Shown here piece by piece: positions 1 to 56,657 of a stretch of DNA of 64,000 nucleotides. Under the pieces are notes generated by a model. That model did not search any database. It worked only from the letters and a program-made list of their open reading frames with translations, and had not been told where the DNA came from. How positions within the stretch are numbered: position 1 is the stretch's first letter; every line of letters starts with the position of its first letter. The stretch comes from a virus. Location of the stretch: positions 1 to 64,000 of the IMG/VR virus record IMGVR_UViG_3300022821_000015; one strand, written 5' to 3'. The position numbers and the translations under genes are program-made.

Positions 1-556
1 GGACCAACTCATCAACCGTCTTCTTGTATGTGTCAATGGGCAGGATACCATCACTGTATCGGGTGTTTGCATTTAGTTTACATGCACCTTTTTCGGCAGC
101 AAGGTCTGCGCTTGCTTTGATAAGATAGTAACTCCACGCTTCGGCATACTCGTCAATCAACTCCAAGTTTGGTTCAGAATATGATGAGTCGTGCTTGGCA
201 AGGAAGTATGCTAGGTTGATGATCCCTACACCTAATGGTCTATAACCTTTTGAATGTAGTTCAGCAGCAAGCACTGGATACTTCTGGTAATCAAGTAATG
301 CGTCTAGTCCACGCACCGCAAGTTCACAAGGACGCTTGAAGTCTGATGGTTCTTTAACATTTCCCCAATTCATAGCCGACAATGTACATAAAGCAATCAA
401 TCCATCCTCGTCTTTTAAATCTATAAGTGGCTTAGTTGGTAGGGCAATCTCTTGACAGTTATGAACCAACACATCGTTAGCAAAAAAGTTTTCTGTGTCT
501 TTTACTGTTATGTCGTATACGGCTTCTCGTTTTGCTAATTTAGTTACTTTTGCCAT
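1..556 (-). CDS. nrdA: NrdA fragment C (partial): split-intein IntC (33 aa) + C-terminal extein of ribonucleotide reductase class Ia alpha
   Basis: Not in the ORF track. Hand translation from ATG 556: MAKVTKLAKREAVYDITVKDTENFFANDVLVHN|CQEIALPTKPL...IALCTLSAMNWG...RPLGVGIINLAYFLA; runs off the window edge. Confidence 0.93.
   Translation of the reverse strand, partial: MAKVTKLAKREAVYDITVKDTENFFANDVLVHNCQEIALPTKPLIDLKDEDGLIALCTLSAMNWGNVKEPSDFKRPCELAVRGLDALLDYQKYPVLAAELHSKGYRPLGVGIINLAYFLAKHDSSYSEPNLELIDEYAEAWSYYLIKASADLAAEKGACKLNANTRYSDGILPIDTYKKTVDELV
458..556 (-). mobile_element. Split intein C-half (NrdA site 3)
   Basis: VYDITV...NFFANDVLVHN followed by +1 Cys. Confidence 0.93.
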
Positions 557-2426
557 TTATCATTCTTCCTTGTTTCCATCCAGTTTCTAAATGTTTATTC
601 AACTTATCTTTATGAATTCTCTTGTTCTCATCGTCTTTAGTAACCCACGTATATTGCTTATTAGTATCCGAGGCATATTTATCCTTTATGTCTAGAAATG
701 ACAATAGAACATCAGTTTCCGTTAATTCCCTAGCAGCAACATACCCTCTGTTTTCTGTCCAAAACAAATGATCGCCCGTGCAGACAACTGACTGCATACC
801 ATCATCTGTTTCAACCTTATAAAGCTCCGCGTCTGGATTCGTCATACCAAACGCAGTTATAGATTGAAACTCAACGGTATTTGTCTTGGTATTATATGAC
901 TTAACCAAAACTGTTTCATATTTCTTAATGAATTTATCTACTTCGTGAATTTCGATTGAAAAGATTTCATTATCACATTTTACCGTTATCTTAGTATCTG
1001 CTACCAGACAAAGATTACTCATACGCACTGCGGCTACATCTGGTTTGAATGATGAATGGTCGTTGACGTTATCTACATTCATAAGATATATACGACCAGT
1101 ATTCTTTCGTTCTTCCATAAATGCAGAGAACAGTTCTGATGCTTTTACACGTTTCTTGCGAATGTAGTTATTCTTTTCAGCACGTTCGTATAGTTCTTTG
1201 AACTTATCTTGATCATTAAAGAAGGATTCGTATAGGCCCGGAACATCGCTTGGGCTGAATAATGTAATATCGGCATTTTGGATAAGGCGCTCATAAAACA
1301 ACTTACTGAACTGCACTGAGTAATCAATGTGGCGCACACGATTATCGTCGGTGCCTTTGTTGTTCTTTAGCACGAGTAGGTCTTCTACTTCATAATGCCA
1401 GATGGGATAATGAAGTGTTGCACTATTATGAACAACCATCATCTTATCTGGATTTTTCCCGGCGTAATAATTCTCGGTAACATCTACTGAAAAATCAGCA
1501 AATTCCGGGGTAATATTGGCAGGACGAAGTTTTGTGATTGTAGATTTTTCGGTGTTTGTCCAACAAATATCCCCAACTACAAGATGTTCGGCATCCACAT
1601 AATCCCAAATTTCGTTTCTAAAGACAAGGGTTGGATGAATCGTGCTTGTAATGACAGATGTGCCATTTTCAAGCATGATTTGTATTTGATTTGTTGATGG
1701 CACAAACGGTCGCATGGTGGCTTTAACAAAGTTATATTCATCCATGCCTGATTCAATATTTCGGGAGAGGACATACTCACCCTCACTGACATTTGTTATT
1801 TTTGTATTATTCGTTAATAAACGCATTTGCATTGATGCATTTTTTATTTCCTCATTTGTCATATTGGCCAATGTATCTATTAAATGTTTTACACTAACCT
1901 CATTGTTATTTATACGAATAGTGTCGGAAATATTATAAAATTTTCCTGCATGTTCTAACCCAGAACACGTTTTTACATAAGAATCTGCGCTAACACACCC
2001 ACCACGCACACCGCCTTGTGAATTATGAGTGAGTACCATTTCACCATCGTGTGTCTCGGACGCAAAGAAAGTGTGAGTGTCCTCTACTGTAATATCAATG
2101 TAATCTTCTGTTTGATTATCGTTTTCACATGAATAAAGATAGGTAACTCCGTTGTCAGTGATGATTTCATCAAGCTCTGTTATTTCATCTGGTTTCTTCT
2201 CTACCACATTGCTACCCAGTTGAATCATGATAGGGTGGTTTTCTGAACAGTGAATTACTGTTCCATTAGTAAATTCCAACTTTCGTTGGGCAGACTTTTG
2301 AACTATGGTGTTCCATACATCTGTAACTTGTTTGAAAACAATAATATCTTTATCTTTATCTTTTGTTTTTATTTTCATACCCGCCCGAAGGTCCGATAAT
2401 TTAATTCTCTTAGATTTTTTTGTCAT
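540..2426 (-). CDS. nrdA: NrdA fragment B: IntC(135 aa)-SQGGVRGG-cis intein(191 aa)-extein(138 aa)-IntN(156 aa)
   Basis: Exteins SQGGVRGG, SATLHYPIWH...LKNNKG...ERKNTGRIY...MSNL match class Ia NrdA; likely start is ATG 2426 (MTKKSK) rather than 2465. Confidence 0.93.
   Translation of the reverse strand: MTKKSKRIKLSDLRAGMKIKTKDKDKDIIVFKQVTDVWNTIVQKSAQRKLEFTNGTVIHCSENHPIMIQLGSNVVEKKPDEITELDEIITDNGVTYLYSCENDNQTEDYIDITVEDTHTFFASETHDGEMVLTHNSQGGVRGGCVSADSYVKTCSGLEHAGKFYNISDTIRINNNEVSVKHLIDTLANMTNEEIKNASMQMRLLTNNTKITNVSEGEYVLSRNIESGMDEYNFVKATMRPFVPSTNQIQIMLENGTSVITSTIHPTLVFRNEIWDYVDAEHLVVGDICWTNTEKSTITKLRPANITPEFADFSVDVTENYYAGKNPDKMMVVHNSATLHYPIWHYEVEDLLVLKNNKGTDDNRVRHIDYSVQFSKLFYERLIQNADITLFSPSDVPGLYESFFNDQDKFKELYERAEKNNYIRKKRVKASELFSAFMEERKNTGRIYLMNVDNVNDHSSFKPDVAAVRMSNLCLVADTKITVKCDNEIFSIEIHEVDKFIKKYETVLVKSYNTKTNTVEFQSITAFGMTNPDAELYKVETDDGMQSVVCTGDHLFWTENRGYVAARELTETDVLLSFLDIKDKYASDTNKQYTWVTKDDENKRIHKDKLNKHLETGWKQGRMINGKSN
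543..1010 (-). mobile_element. Split intein N-half (NrdA site 3, at SNL|C) with a C-terminal endonuclease remnant
   Basis: CLVADTKITV block A, CTGDHLFWT block B, no terminal HN; tail WVTKDDENKRIHKDKLNKHLETGWKQGR. Confidence 0.9.
1425..1997 (-). mobile_element. Contiguous intein without a recognisable endonuclease domain (NrdA site 2)
   Basis: CVSADSYV...TSTIHP...DFSVDVTENYYAG...VVHN|S. Confidence 0.9.
2022..2426 (-). mobile_element. Atypical split intein C-half (NrdA site 1)
   Basis: Has block B (CSENHP) and blocks F/G (YIDITVEDTHTFFA...LTHN|S) but no N-terminal Cys. Confidence 0.9.
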
Positions 2427-2574
2427 TTTTTTTATACCTTTTGATTTCTTCTGTAGTCCATTCATGAATTTTTGTCATATGATTAGTAAAATTTCCAGCC
2501 ATAAATTTGTGACCATCTTTGCATCCAAAGGGACATGATATTTTATGTTTCTCTTGAACTCCGGGCATATTCAT
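2410..2574 (-). CDS. 54-aa C2H2 zinc-finger-like protein between the NrdA site-1 intein halves (probable endonuclease remnant)
   Basis: Hand translation MNMPGVQEKHKISCPFGCKDGHKFMAGNFTNHMTKIHEWTTEEIKRYKKNDKKI; GGGAG SD upstream. Confidence 0.6.
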   Translation of the reverse strand: MNMPGVQEKHKISCPFGCKDGHKFMAGNFTNHMTKIHEWTTEEIKRYKKNDKKI

Positions 2575-2579
2575 TGCAC

Positions 2580-3518
2580 TTACTCCCCCTTGCGTTCCAA
2601 ATCATCAGTTTCATCAAGAATTTCCACATAAGTATCTGGTTTTAGACAACATGATTTTACTGCGGTTTGGAAATGCTTAAAGAACGGAATGACACCTGTA
2701 TGATATGCATCGCCATTACGAATAGACGCACCGATAGCACGAATACTACCAGCGCCGATACCGATGCCAGCCTTTTGTGATACATATTTCACAATAGCGG
2801 AAGATGACGCATTAATGGAATCCAATGAATCGCCTGTTTCGATTAACACACACGAACTGAATTGTCGTTGCGGTGTTCGTACACCAGCCATAATAGGTGT
2901 AGGCAACGAGATATCAAATGTTGATATAGCATCGTAATAATCTTTTACCCATTGTAGTCTGTCTTTTTCATAATGACTGAATAGGCTCATTGCTACTAGC
3001 ATATAGCACATTTGTGGTGTTTCGAAGATTTCTTTAGTGACACGGTTTTGGACAAGATACTTGCCTCTAAACTGTTCCATAGCGGCGTATGTTAGGTCAT
3101 TATCTCGGACGTGTCGGATGTATGAGTTTAGTAGTTCATATTCTTTTTCATCGTATGCAGATAGAAGTTCGGGGTCATAAAAACCACTCTTAACATTCTT
3201 CTCTACCAGTTGACGCAATGCCCACGGTTCATATTGTCCGTATACTTGTTTACGTAGATGATAGTTAATCAGACGACCGCCAACATATTGGTAGTTTGGT
3301 GTCTCTTCGGAGATTAAATCTGCTGCTGATTTGATTAATGTTTCTTGAATGTCGGTTGATTTAATGCCATTATAGAATTGGATTTGGGAACGAATTTCTA
3401 CTTCTGAAGGCGACACTCCTGTAATGCCATCACACGCATTGAATACTACCTTATGTAGTTTTTCAATATCAAGTGTTTCTTTATCCCCTGTGCGTTTTGT
3501 TACAGTTATGTCTGTCAT
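2580..3518 (-). CDS. nrdA: NrdA fragment A (ATP cone + N-terminal extein) ending in a 22-aa IntN
   Basis: VTKRTG ATP cone, ETPQ, PTPIMAGVRTPQRQFSSC, AGIG, AVKSC|CLKPDTYVEILDE. Confidence 0.95.
   Translation of the reverse strand: MTDITVTKRTGDKETLDIEKLHKVVFNACDGITGVSPSEVEIRSQIQFYNGIKSTDIQETLIKSAADLISEETPNYQYVGGRLINYHLRKQVYGQYEPWALRQLVEKNVKSGFYDPELLSAYDEKEYELLNSYIRHVRDNDLTYAAMEQFRGKYLVQNRVTKEIFETPQMCYMLVAMSLFSHYEKDRLQWVKDYYDAISTFDISLPTPIMAGVRTPQRQFSSCVLIETGDSLDSINASSSAIVKYVSQKAGIGIGAGSIRAIGASIRNGDAYHTGVIPFFKHFQTAVKSCCLKPDTYVEILDETDDLERKGE
2583..2648 (-). mobile_element. Atypical short split intein N-half (NrdA site 1)
   Basis: CLKPDTYVEILDETDDLERKGE then stop; block A only. Confidence 0.88.
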
Positions 3519-4321
3519 ATTAATCCTATCTTTTTATATCGTTCTATTGTCATATCCAAATACTCAAGAGAGTTATCAATTCCAATATATTTTCTACCAT
3601 TATTTACGGCGGCGATCCCTGTCGTGCCACTACCAGAAAACGGGTCAAGAATAGTATCCCCTTCTACTGATACCAGCTTCAACATCCATTCTGCCAATGG
3701 CACTGGATATGCTGCTGGATGGCTATGTTCTTTTTTGGCATTATTTGATACAGAGATTTCAACATAATCTTTACATCGGGTAAACCCTGCCTGTGGTTCT
3801 TTATCATCGGTGAACCCACTGCCCCATTGTTTTAGTGATTGTCCAACATCTTGTTTACGAAACGAGATATTTTTGGAGAATGTGCCGTTAGCCTTTGGGT
3901 ATGCGTTCGGTTTGCCTGTGTTAGAAAACCACAGAATTCTTTCCCATGATCGTCTTGGTCGGTTGATATTGCCGACAGGGGGGCCATCTGGTTTGATCCA
4001 AATAAGTTCTTCACATTCTTTCCATCCACTTTCTCTAACAGCCAGTCGTGTTCTCAAAACGTAATCTGATATTTCGCCTTTTGAAATATTTTCACGAATG
4101 TTAATCAAACAACTTCCTGTGTCGGAAATCAACGGCTTTACCTTACTCATCCAATCGGTTGTCCATGCTGGATATTTATCTTCACTCACTCCATTATAGA
4201 ATTTTTTGCGCTGTTCGGCATAAGGCGGCGACGTTACCAACGAAGTGAAACTTACATCACTGATATCAGTAACATCGCCATGATAAAGTGTTATATTGTC
4301 CGTTTCGAATACTTTTCTCAT
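3515..4321 (-). CDS. DNA amino-methyltransferase, beta class (N4-C/N6-A)
   Basis: TSPPY catalytic motif precedes HPA and ILDPFSGSGTTG SAM-binding motif. Confidence 0.92.
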   Translation of the reverse strand: MRKVFETDNITLYHGDVTDISDVSFTSLVTSPPYAEQRKKFYNGVSEDKYPAWTTDWMSKVKPLISDTGSCLINIRENISKGEISDYVLRTRLAVRESGWKECEELIWIKPDGPPVGNINRPRRSWERILWFSNTGKPNAYPKANGTFSKNISFRKQDVGQSLKQWGSGFTDDKEPQAGFTRCKDYVEISVSNNAKKEHSHPAAYPVPLAEWMLKLVSVEGDTILDPFSGSGTTGIAAVNNGRKYIGIDNSLEYLDMTIERYKKIGLI

Positions 4322-5082: not shown

Positions 5083-5160
5083 TTTTATTTTCCTGTAATT
5101 ATTTAATATAGTTATTATACCACTCCTGATATACGTACTTCCATATAAAAATAAATTAGA

Positions 5161-5586: not shown

Positions 5587-5614
5587 AAAGGTATTTAGAC
5601 TTGTTTAAATGCGG

Positions 5615-13175: not shown

Positions 13176-13523
13176 AAGGATTGGAAAGTATATGCCATCA
13201 ATAGCATCATACTCAAGATGCTCGGCTACCTGTATGCGATTATTACCGATACGAATCAAATAAATGAAACCATCCGAATGAATGGTAGGCGGATTAATGA
13301 ACTTCCAGTCTTCTCTGTAACTAAAGCAACCAGTAAATGTATTATCCCACCATTCAGGTGTCACTCGGTCGTACAATACGGGATACCACATACCATCATT
13401 TGTTATACTCGGAAGGTCACGATGTTTCCACCGTTCATCCATATGATAACTAGCCAATGATACTTGCGATAATGGAACAGGCTTTATATCGAGATGTTGG
13501 TAAAGACAATGAAGGGTTTTCAT
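13107..13523 (-). CDS. Hypothetical protein (ParB/Srx-like features); C-terminus altered by the duplication
   Basis: GMWYPVL...GNNRIQVAEHL. Confidence 0.55.
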   Translation of the reverse strand: MKTLHCLYQHLDIKPVPLSQVSLASYHMDERWKHRDLPSITNDGMWYPVLYDRVTPEWWDNTFTGCFSYREDWKFINPPTIHSDGFIYLIRIGNNRIQVAEHLEYDAIDGIYFPILKDLIEFNQRIKTERPYRVQSAY

Positions 13524-15265
13524 AAATTCAAAACCCACACACCGTTCCCACAGTCCCATATACGATCATACCCATGTGCCCTCATATTTTCCCATTCGGT
13601 TTGTGCTGGATTAAAGTTTGCTAATATATTTGACAATTTATGCTTTTGAAATACATGACGGCTGTATAGACTTTTATAATCATTTGTATATCTATAATTC
13701 GGCGATGAATTGTTAATAAATGTGAAGCCCAATGATTCATATAATCCACCATTAGACCATCTTCTATCACTATATGATATAATAGACTTAGGTGTATAAC
13801 TATTAATAAAGCTCTTTAAAAGCTTTCCCGCACCACCAACAACAGTCATATCACAAATTGTACAAAATCTCAGCATTTCATAATCATATTTTTTATTAAA
13901 CCTAGATTTACCAAAAGTCATCAATGATACAAGTTTGTCATCATAATACAGCCCAATACGTACTGATGATCTAACATTTCCCTGCAAATGATTATCGTTT
14001 AAAAAGACCTTTGACTCACGCGAAGATACTTGTTTAATATTGCATTTTCTCGCATATATAACACTCTGTCTCCCCATAATAGAATTTAATCTAGATTTAA
14101 CTATATGTTTATTGTCATTCCATTCATTGTCTAAAATATGAATAAGACGGATTCCTTTTTTGGAACATTCTTCAGTTTTGCTTAAATGATATTTTCTATT
14201 TTTGCCATTATTTTCAGAATGCCAGTATATACCATTGCATTCGATTGCTATATTATGTTCTGGGATAAAAATATCTATTTCCAATGGTGGTATTAAATAT
14301 CTATTGTTCAAACTACCATCCACAAATTCTCTTACTTCGGATTCCCACATAGATGATGTAATAGGAAAACATTGTGTACATCTTGGCATTTTACCAGAAA
14401 TTAAATTATCAACGAATATATTACTACATTCAATACATTCCCATTCATACTGATGATGCACCCCTTCAAATTCAGTAAACCGTGGGCGTAATTTACCTTT
14501 CACCCTATCACCAATAGTTGTCATGAAGTCAGATTTCTGTTTAGTTAAATATACATCTGATGAAAAATAGTTATCGGCATTATAACGATTATTGATTGTT
14601 TCTTTAATTTTATCTTGTATGGCGGGTGACTGACTTGGCCACATCGTTCCGAATCTTTCTTGATTAGTGTTCATACTCTTTTCTTGAACACTAATCAATG
14701 ATTGTGGATTTGGTATTCCGTATCTTTCAATGGATGTTTGTCGTTTTTTATTTTTAATAGTTTCGAGTTGCGATGGATTATTCACTCCGTGCGTGTCAAT
14801 AAATGATTTTTTAATTTTCTCTTTTATTTTTTCCGACTGAAAAGGGTTATCAACTCCATATTTAGATTGAACGGTCGCTGTTCGTTTTTGCTGAACGTCG
14901 ATAGATTTAGATGGATTATCAACCCCGTATTTTTCACGACATGACTTTAATCGTTTGTTTCGGGTTGGGGTCGCTGCCGCTCCGCATTTCACCGAACAAT
15001 AATCGTTAAATTTTTTTGATTTGAATTTAACGGGGGCGGCACATACCCCACATACCGGGCGGGTCGTTATATTATGTTCCACACAATATACCCGAACGGC
15101 AAGAGAATCATTGGATTCAAGAAATGAGGTTGCTGAATATATAGATTTATATAAATCGGTTTCCAGAAACGAACCTTTTGAAATATTCCCATTAATTTTA
15201 CCAGCGGCATTTATTAAACCGGGATATTCTTTTATTTTCTCTATCAAACTGGTTGATGGTGTCAT
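13520..15265 (-). CDS. Free-standing putative homing endonuclease (Vsr-like core, KYGVDNP repeats)
   Basis: YGVDNPS repeats; LEIDIFIPEHNIAIECNGIYWH; C-terminal ARKC...HLQG...SYSDRRWS...RIWDCG. Confidence 0.82.
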   Translation of the reverse strand: MTPSTSLIEKIKEYPGLINAAGKINGNISKGSFLETDLYKSIYSATSFLESNDSLAVRVYCVEHNITTRPVCGVCAAPVKFKSKKFNDYCSVKCGAAATPTRNKRLKSCREKYGVDNPSKSIDVQQKRTATVQSKYGVDNPFQSEKIKEKIKKSFIDTHGVNNPSQLETIKNKKRQTSIERYGIPNPQSLISVQEKSMNTNQERFGTMWPSQSPAIQDKIKETINNRYNADNYFSSDVYLTKQKSDFMTTIGDRVKGKLRPRFTEFEGVHHQYEWECIECSNIFVDNLISGKMPRCTQCFPITSSMWESEVREFVDGSLNNRYLIPPLEIDIFIPEHNIAIECNGIYWHSENNGKNRKYHLSKTEECSKKGIRLIHILDNEWNDNKHIVKSRLNSIMGRQSVIYARKCNIKQVSSRESKVFLNDNHLQGNVRSSVRIGLYYDDKLVSLMTFGKSRFNKKYDYEMLRFCTICDMTVVGGAGKLLKSFINSYTPKSIISYSDRRWSNGGLYESLGFTFINNSSPNYRYTNDYKSLYSRHVFQKHKLSNILANFNPAQTEWENMRAHGYDRIWDCGNGVWVLNL

Positions 15266-15297
15266 ATATTTTATCTGCTTCTTTGAAATGAACAAAC

Positions 15298-22986: not shown

Positions 22987-23370
22987 ATGGAAGATGCAAA
23001 TCTATTCGCTAAAATCGCAAAAAAGTATCCATTTATCAGTCATATAACCTATGGCGGGAATGAGTTCATCGGTATTATTCAAAATAAGGATAAGATGATA
23101 ACATCATTATATGATTATTCCAAGATTAAATCTATGGAAGAAAAGACATCGTTTATCGAACTGGGCGATACTTGGTGGTGGGAATCGAATCGTCAAATCC
23201 CAATAAATATCTTTCTCAAGAATCTATGGGATTTTAAAGACGTTCTAGTAACTATGAATAGCAAGGACTGTGACATTATCAACGGTCCATACGTAAGTCT
23301 ATCCGAAATATCATCAAAGCGTATTAAACGCACCAACATTCAGCTGGTGCGCCGTGTCAAGCCGAAATAG
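22987..23370 (+). CDS. Conserved hypothetical protein
   Basis: KYPFIS...WWWESNRQIPINIFL. Confidence 0.75.
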   Translation: MEDANLFAKIAKKYPFISHITYGGNEFIGIIQNKDKMITSLYDYSKIKSMEEKTSFIELGDTWWWESNRQIPINIFLKNLWDFKDVLVTMNSKDCDIINGPYVSLSEISSKRIKRTNIQLVRRVKPK

Positions 23371-23941
23371 TTTCATCAAGCAAGTTCATGTGCACTTTAA
23401 CCAGTTCTGCGTAACTGATTGCGTGACTATGTTTAAATGCATAGCCATCGTCTGTCTTATCCCATACCGTTTGTGATATTTCTTTCCAAGGTTTATCTTG
23501 AAGATGTTTCTTTCCGGGACGAATAACTGATATAAACATAGCCATTCGGGCTACGCTATCTGGTTTCATTTTGATAAGTAAATCAAAGTAGTTACCAATA
23601 TGTATTATTTTACCACAAAAGTCTTTGTCAGTCCATATTCTTTTCCAGTTAGGTTCACGTGCCATCAACTCGTTCAAGTGTTCTTCATCTCGCACAAGTT
23701 CATATACATGCACGTTCAGAATATCAAGCTTGATATAGCCAAGGGTTTCTGCTTCTTTATAATCAATCGCCGCCATTTTCGTGCGGGGGTCGAAGCCAAT
23801 ATCGGTGACGTATATACCAGTATTGTGCTTGACCATTTTCCCTTCACGATTGATAGAAGCGTTGACATAGGAAATATGCTCTAGAACTTTTGTTCTGTCG
23901 GCTGTATCTATGTCAACGTCTGGTAAATCAAAGTGTGCCAT
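23357..23941 (-). CDS. Miniature DNA polymerase III alpha (family C) catalytic-core protein, 194 aa
   Basis: PDVDID, KHNTGIYV, KLDILNV, IRPG, GYAFKHSHAISYA. Confidence 0.82.
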   Translation of the reverse strand: MAHFDLPDVDIDTADRTKVLEHISYVNASINREGKMVKHNTGIYVTDIGFDPRTKMAAIDYKEAETLGYIKLDILNVHVYELVRDEEHLNELMAREPNWKRIWTDKDFCGKIIHIGNYFDLLIKMKPDSVARMAMFISVIRPGKKHLQDKPWKEISQTVWDKTDDGYAFKHSHAISYAELVKVHMNLLDETISA

Positions 23942-24299
23942 CTTTACGCATTTGTTCCCTGATTTTGGTTGCACTGATTTCTTGGGTTGCTTCATCTAAT
24001 ACTTCTTCGGTAATAGCATACCCTACCCCACGACCATAAACGATTTCTGTAATATTCGGCACTAACATAATATCATATTGCTTACCGATATGAAAACTGT
24101 GACTATTCAAACCTTCAATAATATTTGCCTTAACGGTATTGAAATCAAATGGGTTGTCTTCGACACCGTTCACATCACGTATTTGAATCATTACCTGACC
24201 CGTCTTGGCATAGGCTCGCTTGAATAGTTCAAGGTGACCATCATGCCATGGCTGAAATCTCCCCAATAGTTGCACTGTCGGCTTTTTCCAATCAAACAT
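23928..24299 (-). CDS. Cytidylyltransferase-like nucleotidyltransferase domain protein
   Basis: GRFQPWHDGH...NPF...ISATKIR. Confidence 0.85.
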   Translation of the reverse strand: MFDWKKPTVQLLGRFQPWHDGHLELFKRAYAKTGQVMIQIRDVNGVEDNPFDFNTVKANIIEGLNSHSFHIGKQYDIMLVPNITEIVYGRGVGYAITEEVLDEATQEISATKIREQMRKDGTL

Positions 24300-28571: not shown

Positions 28572-29440
28572 CGTATATTACTCACCTTATCCTTTATGCT
28601 GTCTGGTAAATCAGTTAGCATTATCTCATCTATATTATGCTTGAACCACGACTGCGATACAATAGCGTATCCCCATCCCATCTGATTAGCCCATTCCGTA
28701 GCATATTTTTCCTTGGCACGGGATTTATCATTCATACACTCGGTAGGCTTTATCTCTATCAGTATACCAAGTGCTTCATTGTGAAAGTCAACTATGTAAA
28801 TGTGCTCTACACCATCATGCATATATGGTATTCTAATTTTCTCGTATTCATAATCACTGTTAATCGAGTGCCATGCAGCCTCCCACGATGATCTATATTT
28901 CATTCCGTTGTATTCTACTTGCCAGTGTGTCCAACTATTATGAATATTAGGAGTGAATTTCCCAGTCCTAATATTTTCCTTGACGCGAACAGATGATGCG
29001 TGTCGCTGTGCGATGGTAGGTGAAATACCGTACATCGGATTACCTTTCCCGATTCTATCGGTGGATAATTTCATCAACCTATCATCATTCTCCTTCGTCA
29101 ATCCTTTATTCCACGGAACAGTCCCGGTATGGCTATCCTTATTCCACGGCGTACCAGTGTTAAGGTTTTTTCTTATCTTGTCGCCGTGCTGTCTCTGACA
29201 TTCACTTCCGCCAAGGTTTGCCGCCGAAGACTTGCGTTTAGAAATATATTCGGCACGCAATGTTTGATTTTGGTGATATGCAATATCAATGTCCCAACCT
29301 GCTCGGAATCTATTCCATAGCAGGTAACCCTTCTCTACAATACCGGTGGACGTTTCGAACAACCCATCTGCCATCTGTGTCACTGTAATCTCAAATCCTG
29401 CGTCTTCCAACCTTTTGTTCCAATCAACTTTTTTTGCCAT
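28568..29440 (-). CDS. Putative homing endonuclease between the UvsW intein halves (NUMOD3-like repeats + TnsA-like PD-(D/E)XK)
   Basis: PWNK repeats, GKGNPMYG; YRSSWE...YIVDF...LIEIKP. Confidence 0.85.
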   Translation of the reverse strand: MAKKVDWNKRLEDAGFEITVTQMADGLFETSTGIVEKGYLLWNRFRAGWDIDIAYHQNQTLRAEYISKRKSSAANLGGSECQRQHGDKIRKNLNTGTPWNKDSHTGTVPWNKGLTKENDDRLMKLSTDRIGKGNPMYGISPTIAQRHASSVRVKENIRTGKFTPNIHNSWTHWQVEYNGMKYRSSWEAAWHSINSDYEYEKIRIPYMHDGVEHIYIVDFHNEALGILIEIKPTECMNDKSRAKEKYATEWANQMGWGYAIVSQSWFKHNIDEIMLTDLPDSIKDKVSNIR

Positions 29441-29496
29441 CTAAATATCCCATAAATACACCCGCTTTAGTGCGGTGTGTTCATAGTATTTATGCA
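29441..29496 (-). promoter_or_regulatory. Late promoter within an inverted repeat upstream of the endonuclease
   Basis: CATAAATAC...ACAC-A-CCGC-ACTAAA-GCGG-GT-GTATTTATG then GGATATTTAGATG. Confidence 0.55.
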
Positions 29497-30512
29497 AAGT
29501 ACGAAATTATATCATGATTAATAGTCAGATGCTTCGCCTGAACCCATCCTTCAGTAGTTTTTATTTTATGATTACCAGTTATCTCCAACACGGTATCATC
29601 GTCCATCGTAATCTCGTACATGTCTTCCGCATTAGACGATGCGAGGTTCTCGTGTCGTTTCATAACGCGATTGTACTCCATGGCACCGGTTTGTTCGTTG
29701 AGTGTCAGCACAATATCGCCTACGCTAATATCTTTAATCATCACATTCCCCTTCGATGTGCTCACTAATGTTTTTTCATCCAAACATTCATCAACAATAA
29801 CCGCCACTACCCCGTATAAAAACTCTTCGATAGTAATGCCTTCGGTTTTGGCAGCTGTCTTCTTCATAAGTGCACCAAGGCTTTGCCAAGTGCATATAGT
29901 ATGCTGAAATCCGATGTCTTTACGATCACCGTAATAGACGCCCACGTTTAGACCCATATTGATATAGTCTTCTTCCGTTTGCGTGACCAATGACTTATTC
30001 GGGACAATAACAATGGTTCGCCCTCGGTCTTCACACTTATGCGATAGAATAGCGGTTATAAGCGTTTTTCCAGCCCCTGTGGCGATTTCTTGGACACCTT
30101 GGGGGTTTTCTAGGAAACCATTGATAATCTCTACCTGATAGTCACGAACCGCCACGGGTGTTCCAGCTACGGGATGACCCTCTGGCCAGATGAAATCTTT
30201 ATATGAATCTTCTTTTACTTTTTCAAATGGTTCAACATATGAATCGTATTTGCGGCGGTCATCAAGATCGACTGTATATCCTTCTTTCTCAATATCTTCA
30301 AGAATATCAGGAAGCAGATTGATATATGTTCCGCCACCCATTTGAAAGAATGCAATCTTCCCATCCCACCGACCTAGTTTGACCGAAGGGATATGGAACG
30401 CACCCGGTACTTCATATTTGAACTTGTTGTATAACTTTTTTCGTATAGAGGTATCTAAACCAGTAACCTTACAATTGCATTCATCGTTTACTATAATTTT
30501 CGCTTTTGGCAT
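29490..30512 (-). CDS. uvsW: UvsW helicase N-part + IntN (98 aa, 29493-29786)
   Basis: RDYQ, ATGAGKT, IVDE|CLDEKTLV...ITGNHKI. Confidence 0.92.
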   Translation of the reverse strand: MPKAKIIVNDECNCKVTGLDTSIRKKLYNKFKYEVPGAFHIPSVKLGRWDGKIAFFQMGGGTYINLLPDILEDIEKEGYTVDLDDRRKYDSYVEPFEKVKEDSYKDFIWPEGHPVAGTPVAVRDYQVEIINGFLENPQGVQEIATGAGKTLITAILSHKCEDRGRTIVIVPNKSLVTQTEEDYINMGLNVGVYYGDRKDIGFQHTICTWQSLGALMKKTAAKTEGITIEEFLYGVVAVIVDECLDEKTLVSTSKGNVMIKDISVGDIVLTLNEQTGAMEYNRVMKRHENLASSNAEDMYEITMDDDTVLEITGNHKIKTTEGWVQAKHLTINHDIISYFA

Positions 30513-47354: not shown

Positions 47355-48608
47355 TTATTCAACTTCTTCTACGACGACTTCTTCTGGTTCGATTTCTTCA
47401 ACCACCGGCTCTGGATTATCAAGTGTATCCATATACTCGTTCATAACGATTTGAAGTTTATCGTTAGACCAGTTTTTACGGAACTCAATGATTTCTTCAC
47501 CAGCTTTGGTTTCATATTTAAGGCGATTTCCTTGCTTAACAAGAATACCCTTTTCCTCAAACATATCCAACATACCCGAATACGGGTCCATGCCTGTTTC
47601 GTATGGGATTTGAAGTTCTGCATCCTCAAAAGGTTTGTTGTATCGTGTTTTCATAATCTTACACTTAGCACGAATACCGTGAACCTTTGAAGTCTTTACG
47701 CCATCAGCATCAGTTTTCAACTTCAGCTTTTTCATAGCGATAACAATAGATGCCGCATAGATTGGACCTGAACCGCCACTGATTTTATCATCTGGATCAA
47801 ACATATCCTGTGATGCATATGTGTGGTTTGTAGCCACTAGACCGACATTGTAGTTACCGAACATATTAACACAGTTCATAACCAATGACTTTAATGCACG
47901 TGGTTTGTGTCCAAAGTCACCTTTCATATTACCAGCAGTAAACTGGTCAATCTGAATGTCAGTAAGCAATGCACCTAAAGAATCAATAACAAATAGAATC
48001 TTCGGACGTTCTGCTTCATCCATTTCTTTATAATCTTTCATAAACGATGCGATAGTTTTTGCTACATCGTCTACTTTACTCATTGACAAACGTAGTAGTT
48101 TATCTTCACTTGTATCTACGTTTAGTGCGTGTAGCCAAGATTCATCAAGTGCGTTTTCGCTGTCAATAAGGACAACATAGATGCCTTGATCTTGTGCATT
48201 TTTTACTACGTTACCCGATGCGATAAATGATTTACCAGAATTATGACTGGAAATGCCATCTCCCCAATATCGATGATTAGCATGATTGACCTCAAAATCA
48301 AAACATTCAGCATCATCAATTGTGGATACTAAGATAATTTTCTCGGGGCCTGAAGTAGTCAAAATCACATCACCATAGCTTAATTCAGACGCAAGTAACC
48401 ATTTACCGCTTTCAAGCTGAACTAAATGGTTTTCAGCACACTCAGTCTGATGATTTTCAGTTCCAATTTTAACCATCCCCATAACGCCCTTATCAAACCA
48501 GCTGACTATTGATTGATAACCGTCCGGTGTATCAATCTCAATATCATAACTATTTGACTTATACAGCTGTTCTAATTCTTCAACTGATACTGTTTTTTCA
48601 GTAAACAT
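47355..48608 (-). CDS. uvsX: UvsX/RecA C-part: atypical IntC (123 aa, 48240-48608) + C-extein
   Basis: IDTPDGY, CAENHL, CFDFEV...ISSHN|SGKS...IDSENAL...VIDSLG. Confidence 0.93.
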   Translation of the reverse strand: MFTEKTVSVEELEQLYKSNSYDIEIDTPDGYQSIVSWFDKGVMGMVKIGTENHQTECAENHLVQLESGKWLLASELSYGDVILTTSGPEKIILVSTIDDAECFDFEVNHANHRYWGDGISSHNSGKSFIASGNVVKNAQDQGIYVVLIDSENALDESWLHALNVDTSEDKLLRLSMSKVDDVAKTIASFMKDYKEMDEAERPKILFVIDSLGALLTDIQIDQFTAGNMKGDFGHKPRALKSLVMNCVNMFGNYNVGLVATNHTYASQDMFDPDDKISGGSGPIYAASIVIAMKKLKLKTDADGVKTSKVHGIRAKCKIMKTRYNKPFEDAELQIPYETGMDPYSGMLDMFEEKGILVKQGNRLKYETKAGEEIIEFRKNWSNDKLQIVMNEYMDTLDNPEPVVEEIEPEEVVVEEVE

Positions 48609-48609
48609 A

Positions 48610-49737
48610 TTATTCTCCTATTTCAGTTACGCATTTTTTAATAATTATATCAGGGGTTGATCGGTATTCTGATTCCCAAATAATAACTAATTTTTTTACT
48701 AGTTCGCAATCTCGTATTCTATTTTCCCGGATAAAATCCGAGTCCCATTTCTCTTTGGACGTATACCCGAATGACTTCATATCTGCTTCATACATTAATG
48801 GATTACGATGAAAGTAATCACCATGAAATTCAATAACCGTCCCTGAATCTTTATGAAAGAAATCAACACGCAAGCCATCAATTAAATATTCATAATTTCT
48901 CGTTTCATAATACATATTTCCCTGAACATACTTCGTTATAGCATCAAATAAATGCTGGGAAATCTTTGAAAACCGTTGCGTTGGTTTACTTTTCATTTTT
49001 TCACAATAATCATTGTATTTATTTAAAGCTTCCTCATATGATAAACCACGGGCCATGCCCCCTTTTATACTATGTGATTTTTTTAAATTAAAGAGAGCGT
49101 TATCTTCTTTTGATTTATTTGAAAGAGTTTGTTGCCATTGTTTAATTCTAGCTTCGTATTTTACACGCCCTATATCTTCGCCATATTTCTTTGTATAATA
49201 TATCAATCCGTTGGTTGTTTGAATATTTGAAACCTCTGCTTTAGCTTCAAGCTCAGTATAACCTTGTTTTAGCCAAAAAGCTACTGACCTACATGTATAT
49301 TCACTAGTTCCTTTTGTTTTCTCAACTGACAACATATTTCGGGCTTTCTGTATTTTAATTACTTCCTGCTTGGCGGCTTCTTCAGTATATCCAAGATTAA
49401 TCCAGTATTCTGAGCAATTTTTAAACCCTGCTTTCTTCCGGGTTGTTTGCGTTTTATATATTTCTTTAAAATTAGCTTTGCCATAACGCAAGACTTGCGT
49501 ATATATTGAAGTGCCTGAAATCCCTTTGAGCCGCCTATATCTCCCTTTATAATTATTCAAATCATATAACACAAAACATGCAATAGTGGCTAACATATTT
49601 TCTACTTTTTTCGGGGTTCCATAATGATCAAAGAAATCATTCAGTCGTTCATAATGACATGAAGTTAAAACCTTACTTAATAAAATATCCCTTACGTGCT
49701 TTCTTTTTAAAAATCGCTCTGTTTGTTTGGTTATCAT
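48610..49737 (-). CDS. Putative homing endonuclease between the UvsX intein halves (Vsr-like EDxHD family)
   Basis: W..(L/Q)GYT..EA repeats; VDFF...VIEFHGDYFH...IWESE. Confidence 0.85.
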   Translation of the reverse strand: MITKQTERFLKRKHVRDILLSKVLTSCHYERLNDFFDHYGTPKKVENMLATIACFVLYDLNNYKGRYRRLKGISGTSIYTQVLRYGKANFKEIYKTQTTRKKAGFKNCSEYWINLGYTEEAAKQEVIKIQKARNMLSVEKTKGTSEYTCRSVAFWLKQGYTELEAKAEVSNIQTTNGLIYYTKKYGEDIGRVKYEARIKQWQQTLSNKSKEDNALFNLKKSHSIKGGMARGLSYEEALNKYNDYCEKMKSKPTQRFSKISQHLFDAITKYVQGNMYYETRNYEYLIDGLRVDFFHKDSGTVIEFHGDYFHRNPLMYEADMKSFGYTSKEKWDSDFIRENRIRDCELVKKLVIIWESEYRSTPDIIIKKCVTEIGE

Positions 49738-49739
49738 TA

Positions 49740-49780
49740 TACCAGTCTCCTTTTATAGTATTTAGCATAGAAGACTGGTA
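49740..49780 (-). promoter_or_regulatory. SD-sequestering hairpin with a late promoter in the loop
   Basis: TACCAGTCTTCT-atgCTAAATActataaa-AGGAGACTGGTA then TAATG. Confidence 0.75.
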
Positions 49781-49788
49781 AGATACAT

Positions 49789-50028
49789 TTATTTCGGCTT
49801 ATATCTGATTTTTATTGATGCGGTTTTAGGCAAGCACCCAGATTCACCGGCAAGAATGGTTACTTTACCAAGCGGGATACCTTTATTGAAATCACCACTA
49901 ATACGATAGTTTAGTAGATAGTTTCCTGTTGAAATCCAATCGGTAGGATCGTGGAAACCAAAGCTGATTCCCTCAATAGATTTAGTTAAGTCTTTTCGAA
50001 ATTTGCTCACATCGAAGGGACGGGGCAT
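49789..50028 (-). CDS. uvsX: UvsX/RecA N-part + 15-aa IntN (49792-49836)
   Basis: WISTGNYLLN..ISG...GIPLGKVTILAGESG|CLPKTASIKIRYKPK. Confidence 0.93.
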   Translation of the reverse strand: MPRPFDVSKFRKDLTKSIEGISFGFHDPTDWISTGNYLLNYRISGDFNKGIPLGKVTILAGESGCLPKTASIKIRYKPK

Positions 50029-51195: not shown

Positions 51196-51370
51196 GTTTA
51201 TGCTCCTATGCCTTTATGCCGTATATGCCTTGGCTACTATGTGTAGCCTATTGTAGTCTATGCCTTGATCACTTTGTGCGATCTATCGTTGCAATGCTTA
51301 TTCAATATAACCATTATAACGCATTGTATTTATCAAATACTATATAAAAATAAAAAAAGTTTGGGTATTA

Positions 51371-53536: not shown

Positions 53537-53588
53537 AGCGCACCTTTTCTATTAATGGTATTTATCACTGACAGATTATTAAGTCAGC

Positions 53589-54689
53589 TTATCTCCAGCC
53601 ACTCATTCCAGATATAGATGAGAAAAACGGCAATGGTGCCACCATTTGCTCATTATGGTCCCGCATATGCTTTTCTAACGTGGGATTATAGTCTTTTAAT
53701 ACCGTTGCCATACGCACTACAAGCAATGAAGCCATTACCAAGTCGTCGTTTTCACCTTCCTTTGATGAATATGACCGTCCCTTTGCAACAAACGTTTTCA
53801 TTTCAGATATAAGTGGTTTGCTATAAACAATCATTCGTTCTGATTCAATCATTACTTTAAACTTAGCGCAAGCCGCAATCTTAGAGTTCTCAGTCGTGTT
53901 AAATCCTTTGCGGAACTTCCTAACATTACCAAGTTTCTTCGGTTCTGACAGGAATATACCATCGATATTTTCCTCACCAAGTTCGGCAATATTGATTAAT
54001 GCAGCTTCTCCGATTGAGTTATTTTCAACAGAATAATATACATCATTTTTTGTCCCTGTAACATCGGTTAGGTGGGCACAAATAGATTTCATTACTCTCA
54101 CTTGTGTTGGAATATCGGACTTATTATGCATCCATTCACCGCATTGAATCATTTCAGGTAGTTCATATATTTGGATGGCTGCGTTGTCGCCGCCTGTTCC
54201 CATAGCGGGGTCCAATCCAACAAGATATACATGACCTTTTGATGGTTCTTTATACCATCGCACCTGACCATCCACTCTTACTGGCGTAACACCTTCCATA
54301 TCAACTAGCTTCAACCCGCTAATCAAAGTTTCTTCGTGAATAATAAACTCACAGTTTGATGCCAATACTGTATTAGCATAATATCGGTGGCCATCTTCGA
54401 CTTCTACCAAATCAAACACAGCCCGAACACCAATATATTCTCGTGCAATAAGTGCAAGATGTCCCTCTGAACTTAATACCACATCTCCTATATCAAAATC
54501 CTTTGCCTCTTTATAGTCAATCAAGTTTTGATATAATTTATGATCTTCTGTGCATTCCAATATTACACCTTGTTCAAAAGTCAGCTTCCATACTGCCTTA
54601 TCTCCCATAAAAGATACTCCGGAAAAATCCTTATAGCCATCCGGCGTCAATACTTTATAGTTTTTTATGTTTGGAGCTAAATCACCCAT
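53589..54689 (-). CDS. terL: Terminase large subunit C-part: atypical IntC (112 aa, 54354-54689) + nuclease domain
   Basis: VLTPDGY, CTEDHKL, VFDLVEV...VLASN|CEF...LDPAMGTGGD...ENN...DDLVM. Confidence 0.93.
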   Translation of the reverse strand: MGDLAPNIKNYKVLTPDGYKDFSGVSFMGDKAVWKLTFEQGVILECTEDHKLYQNLIDYKEAKDFDIGDVVLSSEGHLALIAREYIGVRAVFDLVEVEDGHRYYANTVLASNCEFIIHEETLISGLKLVDMEGVTPVRVDGQVRWYKEPSKGHVYLVGLDPAMGTGGDNAAIQIYELPEMIQCGEWMHNKSDIPTQVRVMKSICAHLTDVTGTKNDVYYSVENNSIGEAALINIAELGEENIDGIFLSEPKKLGNVRKFRKGFNTTENSKIAACAKFKVMIESERMIVYSKPLISEMKTFVAKGRSYSSKEGENDDLVMASLLVVRMATVLKDYNPTLEKHMRDHNEQMVAPLPFFSSISGMSGWR

Positions 54690-55702
54690 TTTTCAAAATC
54701 ATCCTTCGTTTTTAGTATTTGATAATTGGTTTTAGTCGTGAAGAGCCATACCTCATACGAATATCCTTGTTTTATAACTGCTTCCCTTTTACGAAGATTA
54801 TTTACTATTCTACCATCATAACCATCACGGCCATTGGCATTCCACCACCACATTGATTTAACTTCAATGATACGATTTTCATCTGGAATAAAAATATCTG
54901 GATAATATTTCTTTACTCGGTTTTTTTCATATGAATTATATTGAAAGACTTCTATTACATATTCTTCATAATCGTTATGTACACTAATAGAATCTTCTGT
55001 ATATGTTTCTAGTAAAGCATCGATCACCATATTTTCATAGCCTCGAATACCAATAATTTTACCGCTCGGGAGTTCATAATCTTTTACCGAAGAGTTACCT
55101 TTTCCAGACTTTTTTGAAATGTTTGGAAGTAAAAAGGTATTACCCACACCGAACTTTTCAATGTTTGTCTTGCGACGTTTTTCATTTATTTCATTCTGTT
55201 CGTCAGAAGATTTGGCCCCATTGGTCGCCGCCGATGCTTTCCAGTTAGAATAGTATTCATTGCCATATCTATCCAGTTTGGTCTTCTTGGCCTTATCCTT
55301 AAATTCGTCGCTTTGTGTCGCCCATTCTGTGCCATATTTTGCACGGAAGGTTTCTCTGGATTTTTCCACTTGTTCTTGGATTTGCTCGGGTGTTCTCTTT
55401 GATGCAGCATTGGATTTGTTCTCAGAATCCGAGTGTCGTTGCTCATCTGTCCAGTTTTGTTTGGTTTCCGACACACTTTTTCCAACACATTTTGGTGCGC
55501 CACAACTATTAGCATATGTATGTGTATGTTGATAAAATGTTAAAGATAATCCACATCTACATTTTGGAGAAATACCCGTGATGTATTCTTCATAATAGGA
55601 CTGATATGTATAACTATGTTGTTTAAGATGTTTCGTGAATTGCCCATTTGATTTACAATATTTTTCATTGTCAATTTTTGATGTTTCGTATGTAGCACTC
55701 AT
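54677..55702 (-). CDS. Putative homing endonuclease between the TerL intein halves (PD-(D/E)XK)
   Basis: CRCG, KYG repeats, RGYE...YYPDIFIP...IIEVKS. Confidence 0.85.
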   Translation of the reverse strand: MSATYETSKIDNEKYCKSNGQFTKHLKQHSYTYQSYYEEYITGISPKCRCGLSLTFYQHTHTYANSCGAPKCVGKSVSETKQNWTDEQRHSDSENKSNAASKRTPEQIQEQVEKSRETFRAKYGTEWATQSDEFKDKAKKTKLDRYGNEYYSNWKASAATNGAKSSDEQNEINEKRRKTNIEKFGVGNTFLLPNISKKSGKGNSSVKDYELPSGKIIGIRGYENMVIDALLETYTEDSISVHNDYEEYVIEVFQYNSYEKNRVKKYYPDIFIPDENRIIEVKSMWWWNANGRDGYDGRIVNNLRKREAVIKQGYSYEVWLFTTKTNYQILKTKDDFEKWVI

Positions 55703-55708
55703 TTATAT

Positions 55709-55746
55709 TCTCCTTGAAATCGTTTCATACTTATTTATCAAGGAAA
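55709..55746 (-). promoter_or_regulatory. SD-sequestering hairpin with a late promoter in the loop
   Basis: TTTCCTTGA-TAAATAagtatgaaacgatt-TCAAGGAGA before the endonuclease ATG. Confidence 0.65.
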
Positions 55747-56657
55747 TCATCATCTCTAAATTTTTTATACAGTGTTCCTATATCAACAATACTAGTGGCA
55801 CCATTTTCATCTTGAATAGTTATCAAAGAAGAGTGTACCACGCAACAGTGTTCCCGCCTGAATTTTTCAGTACCAATAGCCTGTTCTTCGTCGTCTGCCC
55901 ATTTTTGGTCACGGTCTGGATGTTCGTGCCAGAATGATCTGAATGCTTTAAATCCATTCGTTCCAATACCCGTATCATTTCCAAAATCATCTACAGTTTT
56001 GTTTGCCATTTTCCATTCTAGGGCAAACTGATCTTCATCGGAGTTTGGCGTTGATGTGATAATACATTTACCACCTGTTGCTAACGTAGGACGCATTGAA
56101 GTCCAGAATTCACTGGCGATTGTATTACGAACGAATGCAAATTCGTCTAGATATAATAACGTGATTGACATACCACGACCCGTGTTTTCTGTCGTAGCTT
56201 GTGCCACCAATCTTGAACCGTTATCAAACTCCAATGAGTTTTTGTTATATGTAGTTGCGCCGCATCTAATGAAATCGGGACATAGTTCGTAAGCGTATCG
56301 CACACGTTGCATAATCTCAGCTGCACCTGATTGTTTATGTGCTGCTACAAGAATAATACTATCAGGCTTGAACATAGCAAACCATAATAGGTATCCCGCT
56401 GCTGTTGTCGATTTTCCCGTCTGTCGTGGCATAAGCGCAATGGCAAAACGATTGTGGTGATATGTATCCACCAGTCTTTCTTGAAACTCGAACGGTGAAT
56501 ATTTAAGTTGACCCTTGGTAGGGTGCTGAATATAGAAATAATTTTCCAGAAAATATTTATGACCAGTTATCGGATCAGCACATTTTGCAAACTCTATCAT
56601 TTGCTCACGTGTATATACCATTTTCATATTTGGTTTTTTAACTAGTTCTTCTGACAT
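55731..56657 (-). CDS. terL: Terminase large subunit N-part (ATPase) + 37-aa IntN (55734-55844)
   Basis: PRQTGKST, GRG, LYLDEFAF, ITSTP, FRREHC|CVVHSSLITI. Confidence 0.95.
   Translation of the reverse strand: MSEELVKKPNMKMVYTREQMIEFAKCADPITGHKYFLENYFYIQHPTKGQLKYSPFEFQERLVDTYHHNRFAIALMPRQTGKSTTAAGYLLWFAMFKPDSIILVAAHKQSGAAEIMQRVRYAYELCPDFIRCGATTYNKNSLEFDNGSRLVAQATTENTGRGMSITLLYLDEFAFVRNTIASEFWTSMRPTLATGGKCIITSTPNSDEDQFALEWKMANKTVDDFGNDTGIGTNGFKAFRSFWHEHPDRDQKWADDEEQAIGTEKFRREHCCVVHSSLITIQDENGATSIVDIGTLYKKFRDDDFLDK

Follow-up and report, generated by a model that had tools for sequence, protein, structure and literature searches.

Split inteins in four conserved genes of a T4-like salt-lake phage point to repeated invasion by independent mobile elements

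How might a phage assemble NrdA, UvsW, UvsX and TerL when it encodes each of them in pieces? The question is raised by the window analyzed here, the first 64 kb of the linear 77,972-bp IMG/VR virus record IMGVR_UViG_3300022821_000015, in which the pieces of these four genes carry N- and C-terminal intein halves (IntN and IntC) next to segments of the host protein (exteins). A sequence-only reading had described five split inteins in essential genes, suggested that they would form a naturally co-selected orthogonal set and raised a possible post-translational control of deoxynucleoside triphosphate (dNTP) supply, recombination and packaging. Our analysis upholds the split inteins themselves and leads to a different view of their origin. 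With a probability of about 85%, the source is a jumbo phage from salt-lake metagenomes, T4-like and ~350 kb in size, whose conserved genes have been repeatedly invaded by independent mobile inteins.

Translation of the minus strand reproduced all five split inteins at the IntN/IntC lengths first proposed (22/135, 156/33, 98/35, 15/123 and 37/112 residues for NrdA-a, NrdA-c, UvsW, UvsX and TerL, respectively), and with the inteins removed the host proteins become continuous, with neither gap nor overlap. The junctions KSC/SQGG, SNL/CQE, VDE/CHG, GESG/SGKS and REHC/CEF (a slash outside parentheses marks the junction) are exact, with zero gap relative to intein-free homologues. For UvsX, all 72 of 72 intein-free relatives in IMG/VR read GESG/(A/S)GKS with a gap of 0; 21 intein-free TerL loci likewise read FRRE(Y/F/H)x/CEF, where the window has FRREHC/CEF, and ~65 intein-free UvsW loci read VDE/(V/A/C)H.AKAD. 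NrdA-a was tested against contig L004, in which a 97% identical NrdA reads KSCSQGGVRGG unbroken, and NrdA-c against E. coli NrdA. A profile search found the Pfam domains of ribonucleotide reductase (RNR), ResIII/helicase_C/UvsW_N, RecA, Terminase_6N/6C and Intein/HINT in the expected pieces.

Given a metagenomic contig as source, stops and inserts of this kind could be assembly or chimera artefacts, an explanation whose probability the other contigs reduce to next to nil. Independently assembled contigs agree that the stops and inserts are genuine. Logan contigs from three other samples bridge both the UvsX and TerL cassettes without indels, and one Logan record, which takes in the stop of the UvsX N-piece, the intervening endonuclease gene and the start of IntC, spans positions 47793-50027 with zero differences. 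IMG/VR contigs from other metagenomes have the same architecture: the NrdA-c region is 100% identical in L005 and L006 and 97% identical in L004, and the TerL cassette is repeated in L001 and L002. The break points are common to dozens of related loci.

NrdA is encoded in three minus-strand pieces. Piece 1 (2580-3518) runs from the start of the protein through AVKSC into the NrdA-a IntN; piece 2 (540-2465) contains the NrdA-a IntC, the extein SQGGVRGG, a contiguous mini-intein (NrdA-b), a stretch of RNR ending in MSNL and the NrdA-c IntN; and piece 3 (2-556) contains the NrdA-c IntC followed by CQEIALPT. The features are as follows.

2649-3518 (-), NrdA extein 1: 290 residues ending in AVKSC, with ATP-cone, all-alpha domain and barrel start (Pfam PF03477, PF00317, PF02867)
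2580-2648 (-), NrdA-a IntN: 22 residues, CLKPDTYVEILDETDDLERKGE, plus stop; atypical S1-like split near the N end (translation)
2410-2574 (-), 54-residue open reading frame (ORF) with C-x4-C-x12-H-x4-H, between the NrdA-a IntN stop and IntC; overlaps the IntC start by 17 nt
2022-2426 (-), NrdA-a IntC: 135 residues from the second ATG, ending in MVLTHN, then +1 Ser (translation; family alignment)
1998-2021 (-), NrdA extein 2: 8 residues, SQGGVRGG, flanked by two inteins (translation; unbroken in L004)
1425-1997 (-), NrdA-b contiguous mini-intein: 191 residues, CVSADS to MVVHN, then +1 Ser (Pfam PT-HINT, residues 222-347)
1011-1424 (-), NrdA extein 3: 138 residues ending in RMSNL (PF02867 positions 80-212)
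540-1010 (-), NrdA-c IntN: 156 residues plus stop; canonical split (match to NrdJ-1, PDB 8UBS, E 1e-13)
458-556 (-), NrdA-c IntC: 33 residues, MAKVTK to VLVHN (PF14890 positions 121-155; upstream ribosome-binding site AAGGAAG)
2-457 (-), NrdA extein 4: starts CQEIALPT and runs off the window start (full piece of 363 residues on L005/L006)

Extein 1 aligned with residues 5-293 of E. coli NrdA (E 1e-114), and the three pieces successively cover positions 1-70, 80-212 and 212-523 of the RNR barrel profile PF02867. Both split sites originally proposed for NrdA are present, but that count left out a sixth intein, the contiguous NrdA-b at 1425-1997. Counted from its first ATG, the NrdA-a IntC would have 148 residues; we favor the 135-residue start because the second ATG corresponds to the family start MxKTKKIQIKDL and has the better ribosome-binding site, being the only one with an upstream AAAGG. 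The last ~45 residues of the NrdA-c IntN (ending in YASDTNKQYTWVTKDDENKRIHKDKLNKHLETGWKQGRMINGKSN) are out of frame in L004 (1845-2287), where IntN ends earlier, so this tail is probably dispensable. In sequence it is similar to the C terminus of a homing endonuclease. Neither split site in nrdA has an intact endonuclease gene: at NrdA-a there is the 54-residue ORF only, and at NrdA-c the IntN and IntC ORFs overlap by 17 nt. The 54-residue ORF had no Pfam or PHROG match and no significant similarity to a zinc-finger ORF in L004 (see below); as a guess, a zinc-finger endonuclease may have left it behind as a remnant. At NrdA-c, the +1 Cys aligned with C439, the radical cysteine of E. coli NrdA. 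We had also considered the Cys of KSC as the redox-active C225 of the E. coli enzyme and dropped this assignment, as it aligns near residue 292 and C225 sits in FSSCVLIE. Directly upstream of nrdA, and overlapping its start, lies an N6/N4 DNA methyltransferase gene (3515-4321, -).

The UvsX, UvsW and TerL loci each place a free-standing gene between IntN and IntC, with all genes on one strand.

49837-50028 (-), UvsX extein 1: 64 residues ending in ILAGESG (PDB UvsX matches 9GBG, 7Z3M)
49789-49836 (-), UvsX IntN: 15 residues, CLPKTASIKIRYKPK, plus stop; atypical S1 split (translation; intein alignment)
48610-49737 (-), free-standing endonuclease-like gene in UvsX: 375 residues (phrog_22677, a function-unknown family)
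48240-48608 (-), UvsX IntC: 123 residues ending in DGISSHN; VidaL-type (PDB 6VGV 'VidaL', E 8e-42 over 122 residues)
47355-48239 (-), UvsX extein 2: starts SGKSFIASG (Pfam RecA)
29787-30512 (-), UvsW extein 1: 242 residues ending in VIVDE (Pfam ResIII, DEAD, UvsW_N)
29490-29786 (-), UvsW IntN: 98 residues plus stop; canonical split (PT-HINT/Hint matches)
28568-29440 (-), free-standing homing-endonuclease gene in UvsW: 290 residues, PD-(D/E)xK / TnsA-like (Pfam PF08722; PHROG 'endonuclease' families)
28467-28571 (-), UvsW IntC: 35 residues ending in NNVVVSN (ATGA overlap with the endonuclease stop)
27720-28466 (-), UvsW extein 2: starts CHGAKAD (best PDB match T4 UvsW 2OCA, E 2e-17)
55845-56657 (-), TerL extein 1: 271 residues ending in FRREHC (Pfam Terminase_6N)
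55731-55844 (-), TerL IntN: 37 residues plus stop; atypical S2 split after the first helix (translation; intein alignment)
54677-55702 (-), free-standing homing-endonuclease gene in TerL: 341 residues, DUF7487 (Pfam PF24308; PHROG 'homing endonuclease')
54354-54689 (-), TerL IntC: 112 residues ending in NTVLASN; GOS/AceL/Cat-TerL type (PDB 6DSL CatC, E 3e-8)
53589-54353 (-), TerL extein 2: nuclease domain, starts CEFIIHEETLISG (Pfam Terminase_6C)

Pfam also found a helicase_C domain among the UvsW pieces, and the UvsW +1 Cys aligned with the C of DECH in T4 UvsW. The endonuclease-like protein in UvsX had no Pfam match and carries the motif EFHGDYFH, which is Vsr-like by eye; homologues of the UvsW endonuclease are present in 14 UvsW cassettes, and the TerL endonuclease has 98.5% amino acid identity to its counterpart in L001. 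Outside any gene, a free-standing homing endonuclease of 591 residues (13520-15295, -) belongs to the same family as that of the TerL cassette (PHROG 'homing endonuclease', E 3e-139) and combines DUF7487 repeats with a Mom-like C-terminal part. An HNH endonuclease gene lies on the opposite strand directly upstream of TerL (57005-57550, +).

All six window inteins begin with Cys, have +1 residues S, S, C, C, S and C (in the order NrdA-a, NrdA-b, NrdA-c, UvsW, UvsX and TerL) and retain block B (SENH, STIH, TGDH, TGNH, AENH and TEDH), blocks F and G and the terminal Asn. Aligned together with two further inteins of apparently the same phage, in PolB and a dehydrogenase-like gene, they are cut at three positions: S1, after the first strands (NrdA-a and UvsX); S2, after the first helix (TerL); and the canonical site (NrdA-c, UvsW, PolB and the dehydrogenase intein). 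Three of the pairs are atypical, as described earlier. Pairwise identity among the inteins does not exceed 31%. By sequence similarity, three window inteins belong to characterized families, namely VidaL (UvsX), GOS/AceL/Cat-TerL (TerL) and NrdJ-1/NrdA (NrdA-c), the evidence coming from the UvsX IntC, the TerL IntC and the NrdA-c IntN, each of which is related to characterized, actively trans-splicing inteins. The TerL intein has the features that define the S2 class: it lies before the conserved CxF, its IntN falls within 25-37 residues and ends after the first helix, and it has CatC homology. As a tool intein, VidaL is ultra-fast and atypically split, its IntN having 16 residues (PMC13014065), and the VidaL-type family comprises 192 proteins that, by length only, include split (~415 residues) and apparently contiguous (~495 residues) forms. 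A PDB search with the 79-residue UvsX N-piece did not retrieve the short VidaL IntN, and the native host gene of VidaL was not confirmed from the literature.

The NrdA-a and UvsW inteins represent large metagenomic families that we could not find described in the literature. Against the PDB, the UvsW IntN gave weak matches only and the NrdA-a IntC gave none. At the UvsW site, a homologous intein is present in 22 IMG/VR loci, of which 3 are contiguous, 5 are split without an endonuclease and 14 are split with one. Relatives of the NrdA-a IntC form 195 protein clusters at 50-57% identity. Surveying the neighborhoods of these relatives with a degenerate DNA pattern, we found 30 IMG/VR loci split with a ~1.1-kb insert, 4 split with a short gap like that of the window and 2 contiguous; the 34 split loci carry family IntN sequences of the form CVTPDTWVE(V/I)LDE, ~19-22 residues long. 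Blocks B (CSxNHP), F (DITV..HTFFA) and G (THN/SQGG) are invariant in 31 family members with a mean identity of ~41%.

We predicted the complex of the cognate NrdA-a pair only, using IntN with 28 extein residues together with IntC. The prediction scored an ipSAE of 0.73 versus 0.01 for the best control, a result that may lean on the model's memory of solved inteins; of 80 solved complexes, 58 attain the docking mark, as do 2 of 110 mismatched pairs. Three runs share at least 81% of contacts, with a partner pLDDT of at least 48, and place Cys1 to Glu13 of IntN in contact with the first strand of IntC and with blocks B, F and G. The IntN has a charge of -5 and the IntC start +7; the UvsX pair has the opposite polarity (IntN +5, IntC net -15). 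An acidic IntN and a basic IntC start recur in NrdA-a family members from other phages, so this pattern is not an adaptation made in this genome and its polarity predates co-residence.

Near relatives indicate how these elements come and go. UvsX is intact in relatives L001 and L002. At both edges of the window's UvsX cassette (47828 and 50040), contigs from other lake samples (X5, X6 and X8) diverge from the window, and one loose contig end from a single lake sample encodes an intein-free UvsX start (MENIMGKPF...), from which we conclude that both UvsX alleles coexist in the lake. L004 (476-1430, +) has no NrdA-a, and its NrdA-b intein is split exactly at NASMQ/MRLL by a 131-residue ROS/MucR-type zinc-finger ORF. 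Its match to a 324-residue PHROG is confined to the N-terminal part of that PHROG, whose C-terminal part matches UvsW-type endonucleases.

The TerL cassette is a mosaic. Relative to L001, DNA identity is 60-84% in the exteins and 93-100% in a stretch that begins with the last 13 IntN codons, includes the endonuclease gene and takes in most of IntC. At the protein level, IntC is 95.5% identical to L001 and L002, but IntN is only 46% identical to L001, its last 13 residues being identical and its first 24 diverged. This pattern points to a footprint of recent homing, with a conversion tract that would have ended inside both intein halves; tract edges in these positions would account for the unequal identity of the two halves, which in turn argues that the halves are not tightly co-evolved. 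The TerL of L001 (664-2592, +) also contains a second, contiguous intein in the P-loop (RQTGK/ALPLDT...IPTHN/STSAAG) with LAGLIDADG-like motifs; it begins with Ala rather than Cys or Ser, and the window TerL is uninterrupted at that site.

A mechanism consistent with these observations would run as follows. Translation would yield three polypeptides for NrdA and two each for UvsW, UvsX and TerL, and at every break a class-1 HINT intein would contribute one complementary half to either side. These halves would associate and ligate their exteins by protein trans-splicing, and NrdA-b would splice in cis. Each C-terminal piece has a ribosome-binding site of its own and overlaps or abuts the endonuclease stop. 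The endonuclease genes at the UvsW, UvsX and TerL breaks would move the cassettes into intein-free alleles during co-infection. Predicted hairpins bury the endonuclease ribosome-binding site in the UvsX (12 bp, z -4.6) and UvsW (z -4.9) leaders, and T4 intron endonucleases are held back in a similar way. Cross-splicing would be avoided passively, through unrelated lineages, three split positions and the opposite charge polarity of NrdA-a and UvsX, the two pairs most alike in architecture. From the genes we infer splicing, its orthogonality and active endonucleases.

The window belongs to a larger genome with further inteins. CheckV estimates the 77,972-bp record to be 22% complete. Nearly every gene in the window is on the minus strand, and its T4-like gene set includes a gp41-type helicase, a primase, a gp32-like protein, UvsW, UvsX, TerL and a tail sheath. 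Window DNA recurs in salt-lake metagenomes of separate studies, in at least nine runs, which argues for a persisting population. Window bases 1-1444 are shared without mismatch by a 121.5-kb record (G001), and a 230-kb record (G002) extends G001, to which it is 99.98% identical across 5.9 kb; together the records cover ~321 kb of the estimated ~350-kb genome. No exact-match extension was found beyond the far end of the window's contig, and GenBank phages gave no match to the UvsX-TerL region by megablast. Near the primase and helicase genes, a 212-residue protein (23357-23995, -) has DnaE (Pol III alpha)-like motifs (PDVDIDT...), no Pfam match and no intein ends.

Across the window and the overlapping contigs, apparently of one phage, there are at least nine inteins, seven of them split. 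PolB carries a split intein after its DTD motif (119/44, Ser1/Ser+1, cysteine-less), and a UDP-glucose-dehydrogenase-like gene carries one with an endonuclease gene at its GGxC motif (103/46). Because genome scans with the Pfam Intein_splicing and PT-HINT profiles miss the TerL intein and barely detect that of UvsX, we built a hidden Markov model from eight inteins. Applied to all ORFs of the extra 124 kb, it gave one further match, in the portal gene, although divergent inteins could escape detection. This contiguous intein of ~400 residues in portal gp20 (L217:15123-18074, +, on G002) reads NPL/CLDLSTR...GIYVKN/STNE, and its inserted domain has an HHKD...N...H motif. PolB lies in three pieces (L159:2064-6097, -, on G001), and its first break (...KDLIDD and stop, a 118-residue unknown ORF, then MWNINVYG...) is without intein halves.

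That the pairs instead form a co-selected, mutually orthogonal set, whose splicing controls dNTP supply, recombination and packaging post-translationally, starts from a sound premise. All pairs must function in one cytoplasm, and non-cognate splicing must stay low in a phage that persists and for which no second copy of NrdA, TerL or RecA was found in the 198 kb searched. Opposite polarity in the two S1 pairs (-5/+7 and +5/-15) and the insertion of two inteins at functional cysteines (NrdA C439 and the C of UvsW DECH) could be taken in its favor; the Cys-Cys junctions KSC/C and REHC/C could in principle form redox-sensitive disulfides, and conditional inteins are known (PMC4760082). We nevertheless consider this proposal quite unlikely. 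Unrelated split inteins are usually orthogonal without selection (15/16; PMC7090010), as are gp41-1, gp41-8, NrdJ-1 and IMPDH-1 among themselves (mutually orthogonal; PMC11766414). Co-selection is not needed because the window inteins share at most 31% identity across three topologies, the two S1 pairs are oppositely charged, orthogonality is the default among unrelated inteins, the NrdA-a polarity is a family trait found in other phages, and an IntN of 15 or 22 residues cannot complete an IntC of 33 or 35. Near relatives without the UvsX and NrdA-a inteins, and the unequal conservation of the TerL halves, argue in the same direction, and comparison of the NrdA-a family and of TerL with L001 revealed no interface features that arose in this genome against cross-reaction. 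As for control, we found no sensor or other supporting feature, and the inteins are not retained in all relatives as a regulatory intein would be: UvsX is intein-free in L001, L002 and all 72 related loci, and NrdA-a is absent from L004. Such intein-free alleles argue that the inteins are dispensable, and they argue against a regulatory role. In a stronger form of the proposal, splicing order or timing, or the junctions KSC/C and REHC/C, might conceivably gate enzyme activity. The description of all four genes as essential was overstated for nrdA, uvsX and uvsW, which are dispensable in laboratory T4.

It is more improbable still that the fragments work without ligation, by non-covalent assembly as in phage Aeh1 NrdA or split gp43, or that some of the genes are decaying pseudogenes. 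Intein-free fractured genes do exist (Aeh1 nrdA, PMC3045599; gp43, cited in PMC2677866), and the PolB of this same phage has its first break without an intein; however, the catalytic intein residues are intact and conserved across families, the exteins have no frameshifts and 77-97% protein identity to relatives, and an 8-residue extein could not assemble non-covalently.

Several points also weigh against our preferred reading of repeated invasion by independent, splicing inteins. Splicing in this phage is predicted from its genes. Before the terminal Asn, the UvsW and TerL inteins carry Ser in place of His; the stem of the TerL endonuclease leader fell short of significance (z -1.3); and the predicted NrdA-a complex may partly reflect what the model remembers of solved inteins. 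Residual cross-talk among split inteins involves short-peptide halves (PMC7090010); as a short IntN is most prone to it, the orthogonality of the three atypical pairs cannot be assumed. The link between the window and the contigs with the extra inteins is short, a 1,444-nt overlap (100% identity) that lies partly within a mobile intein, although 870 nt of it are extein that differs in the 97% identical relative L004. Taken with the evidence above, the sequences point to a transient collection of independent selfish elements and not to a co-designed control system.

For protein ligation and labeling, split inteins are key tools, and natural pairs with a short N-half are rare as well as sought after (PMC13014065). 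This one genome offers relatives of three proven tool inteins and two large families undescribed as far as we found (NrdA-a and the UvsW VDE/C inteins), and co-residence makes natural orthogonality directly testable, so that the genome may serve as a resource and a natural test bed. On a bolder and rather improbable reading, one ~350-kb phage would run at least seven trans- and two cis-splicing reactions per infection, including those of a three-polypeptide ribonucleotide reductase joined across an 8-residue middle extein. If its seven pairs are mutually orthogonal and fast, they would form the largest naturally co-resident orthogonal set, including three short-IntN pairs (15, 22 and 37 residues), and the NrdA-a S1 family would add a new and abundant class to the atypical split inteins. 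The relatives provide snapshots of a life cycle (contiguous intein, endonuclease invasion, split intein with endonuclease and endonuclease loss), among them NrdA-b, contiguous in the window but split in L004, and the homing-tract edges within both TerL halves.

The system is of a known kind, that of fractured genes, with an unusually high intein load in one virus and no new mechanism. Fractured genes with split inteins were described from marine phage metagenomes in the order N-extein-IntN, free-standing homing endonuclease, IntC-C-extein (Dassa et al. 2009, PMC2677866), and the UvsW, UvsX and TerL loci show this three-gene order on one strand. NrdA-c occupies the insertion point of NrdA-1 to -7, directly before the thiyl-radical Cys, and TerL has the long IntC noted for the terminase locus (PMC2677866). 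In contrast, UvsW and UvsX are absent from the hosts listed there, NrdA-a and NrdA-c lack an intact endonuclease gene, and the 2009 loci were on short unlinked scaffolds, whereas here many reside in one phage genome. A literature search found nothing specific on a natural genome with several split inteins or on a natural three-piece protein, which is not proof of absence.

Each of the three recognizable lineages also departs from its characterized relatives. The UvsX IntC aligned with VidaL (PDB 6VGV/6VGW) over 122 of 123 residues and shares the S1 split after the second strand and the very short IntN; its IntN has 15 rather than 16 residues, and about one-third of the IntC residues differ. 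Atypical TerL split inteins are known (PMC11766414, PMC13014065), and the window TerL intein resembles GOS-TerL, AceL-TerL and Cat-TerL in its T4-type TerL host, S2 split, +1 Cys and lengths (37/112 versus 37/115 for GOS-TerL; PMC11766414), but it is a distant relative with Ser before the terminal Asn; position 1 is Cys, as in AceL-TerL, and not the Ser1 of GOS-TerL. NrdA-c shares with NrdJ-1/NrdA-2 (PDB 8UBS) the canonical split, the 33-residue IntC and insertion at the RNR radical cysteine, and it differs in a 156-residue IntN with ~45 extra tail residues, the lack of an endonuclease between the halves and the 17-nt overlap of its ORFs. Engineered orthogonal sets (PMC7090010, PMC11766414) were assembled by people from unlinked sources, whereas the window pairs, known from genes alone, co-reside naturally; in both cases a number of divergent pairs should function together without reacting with one another, and VidaL, Cat and NrdJ-1, relatives of three of the window pairs, have already been joined in tandem splicing designs.

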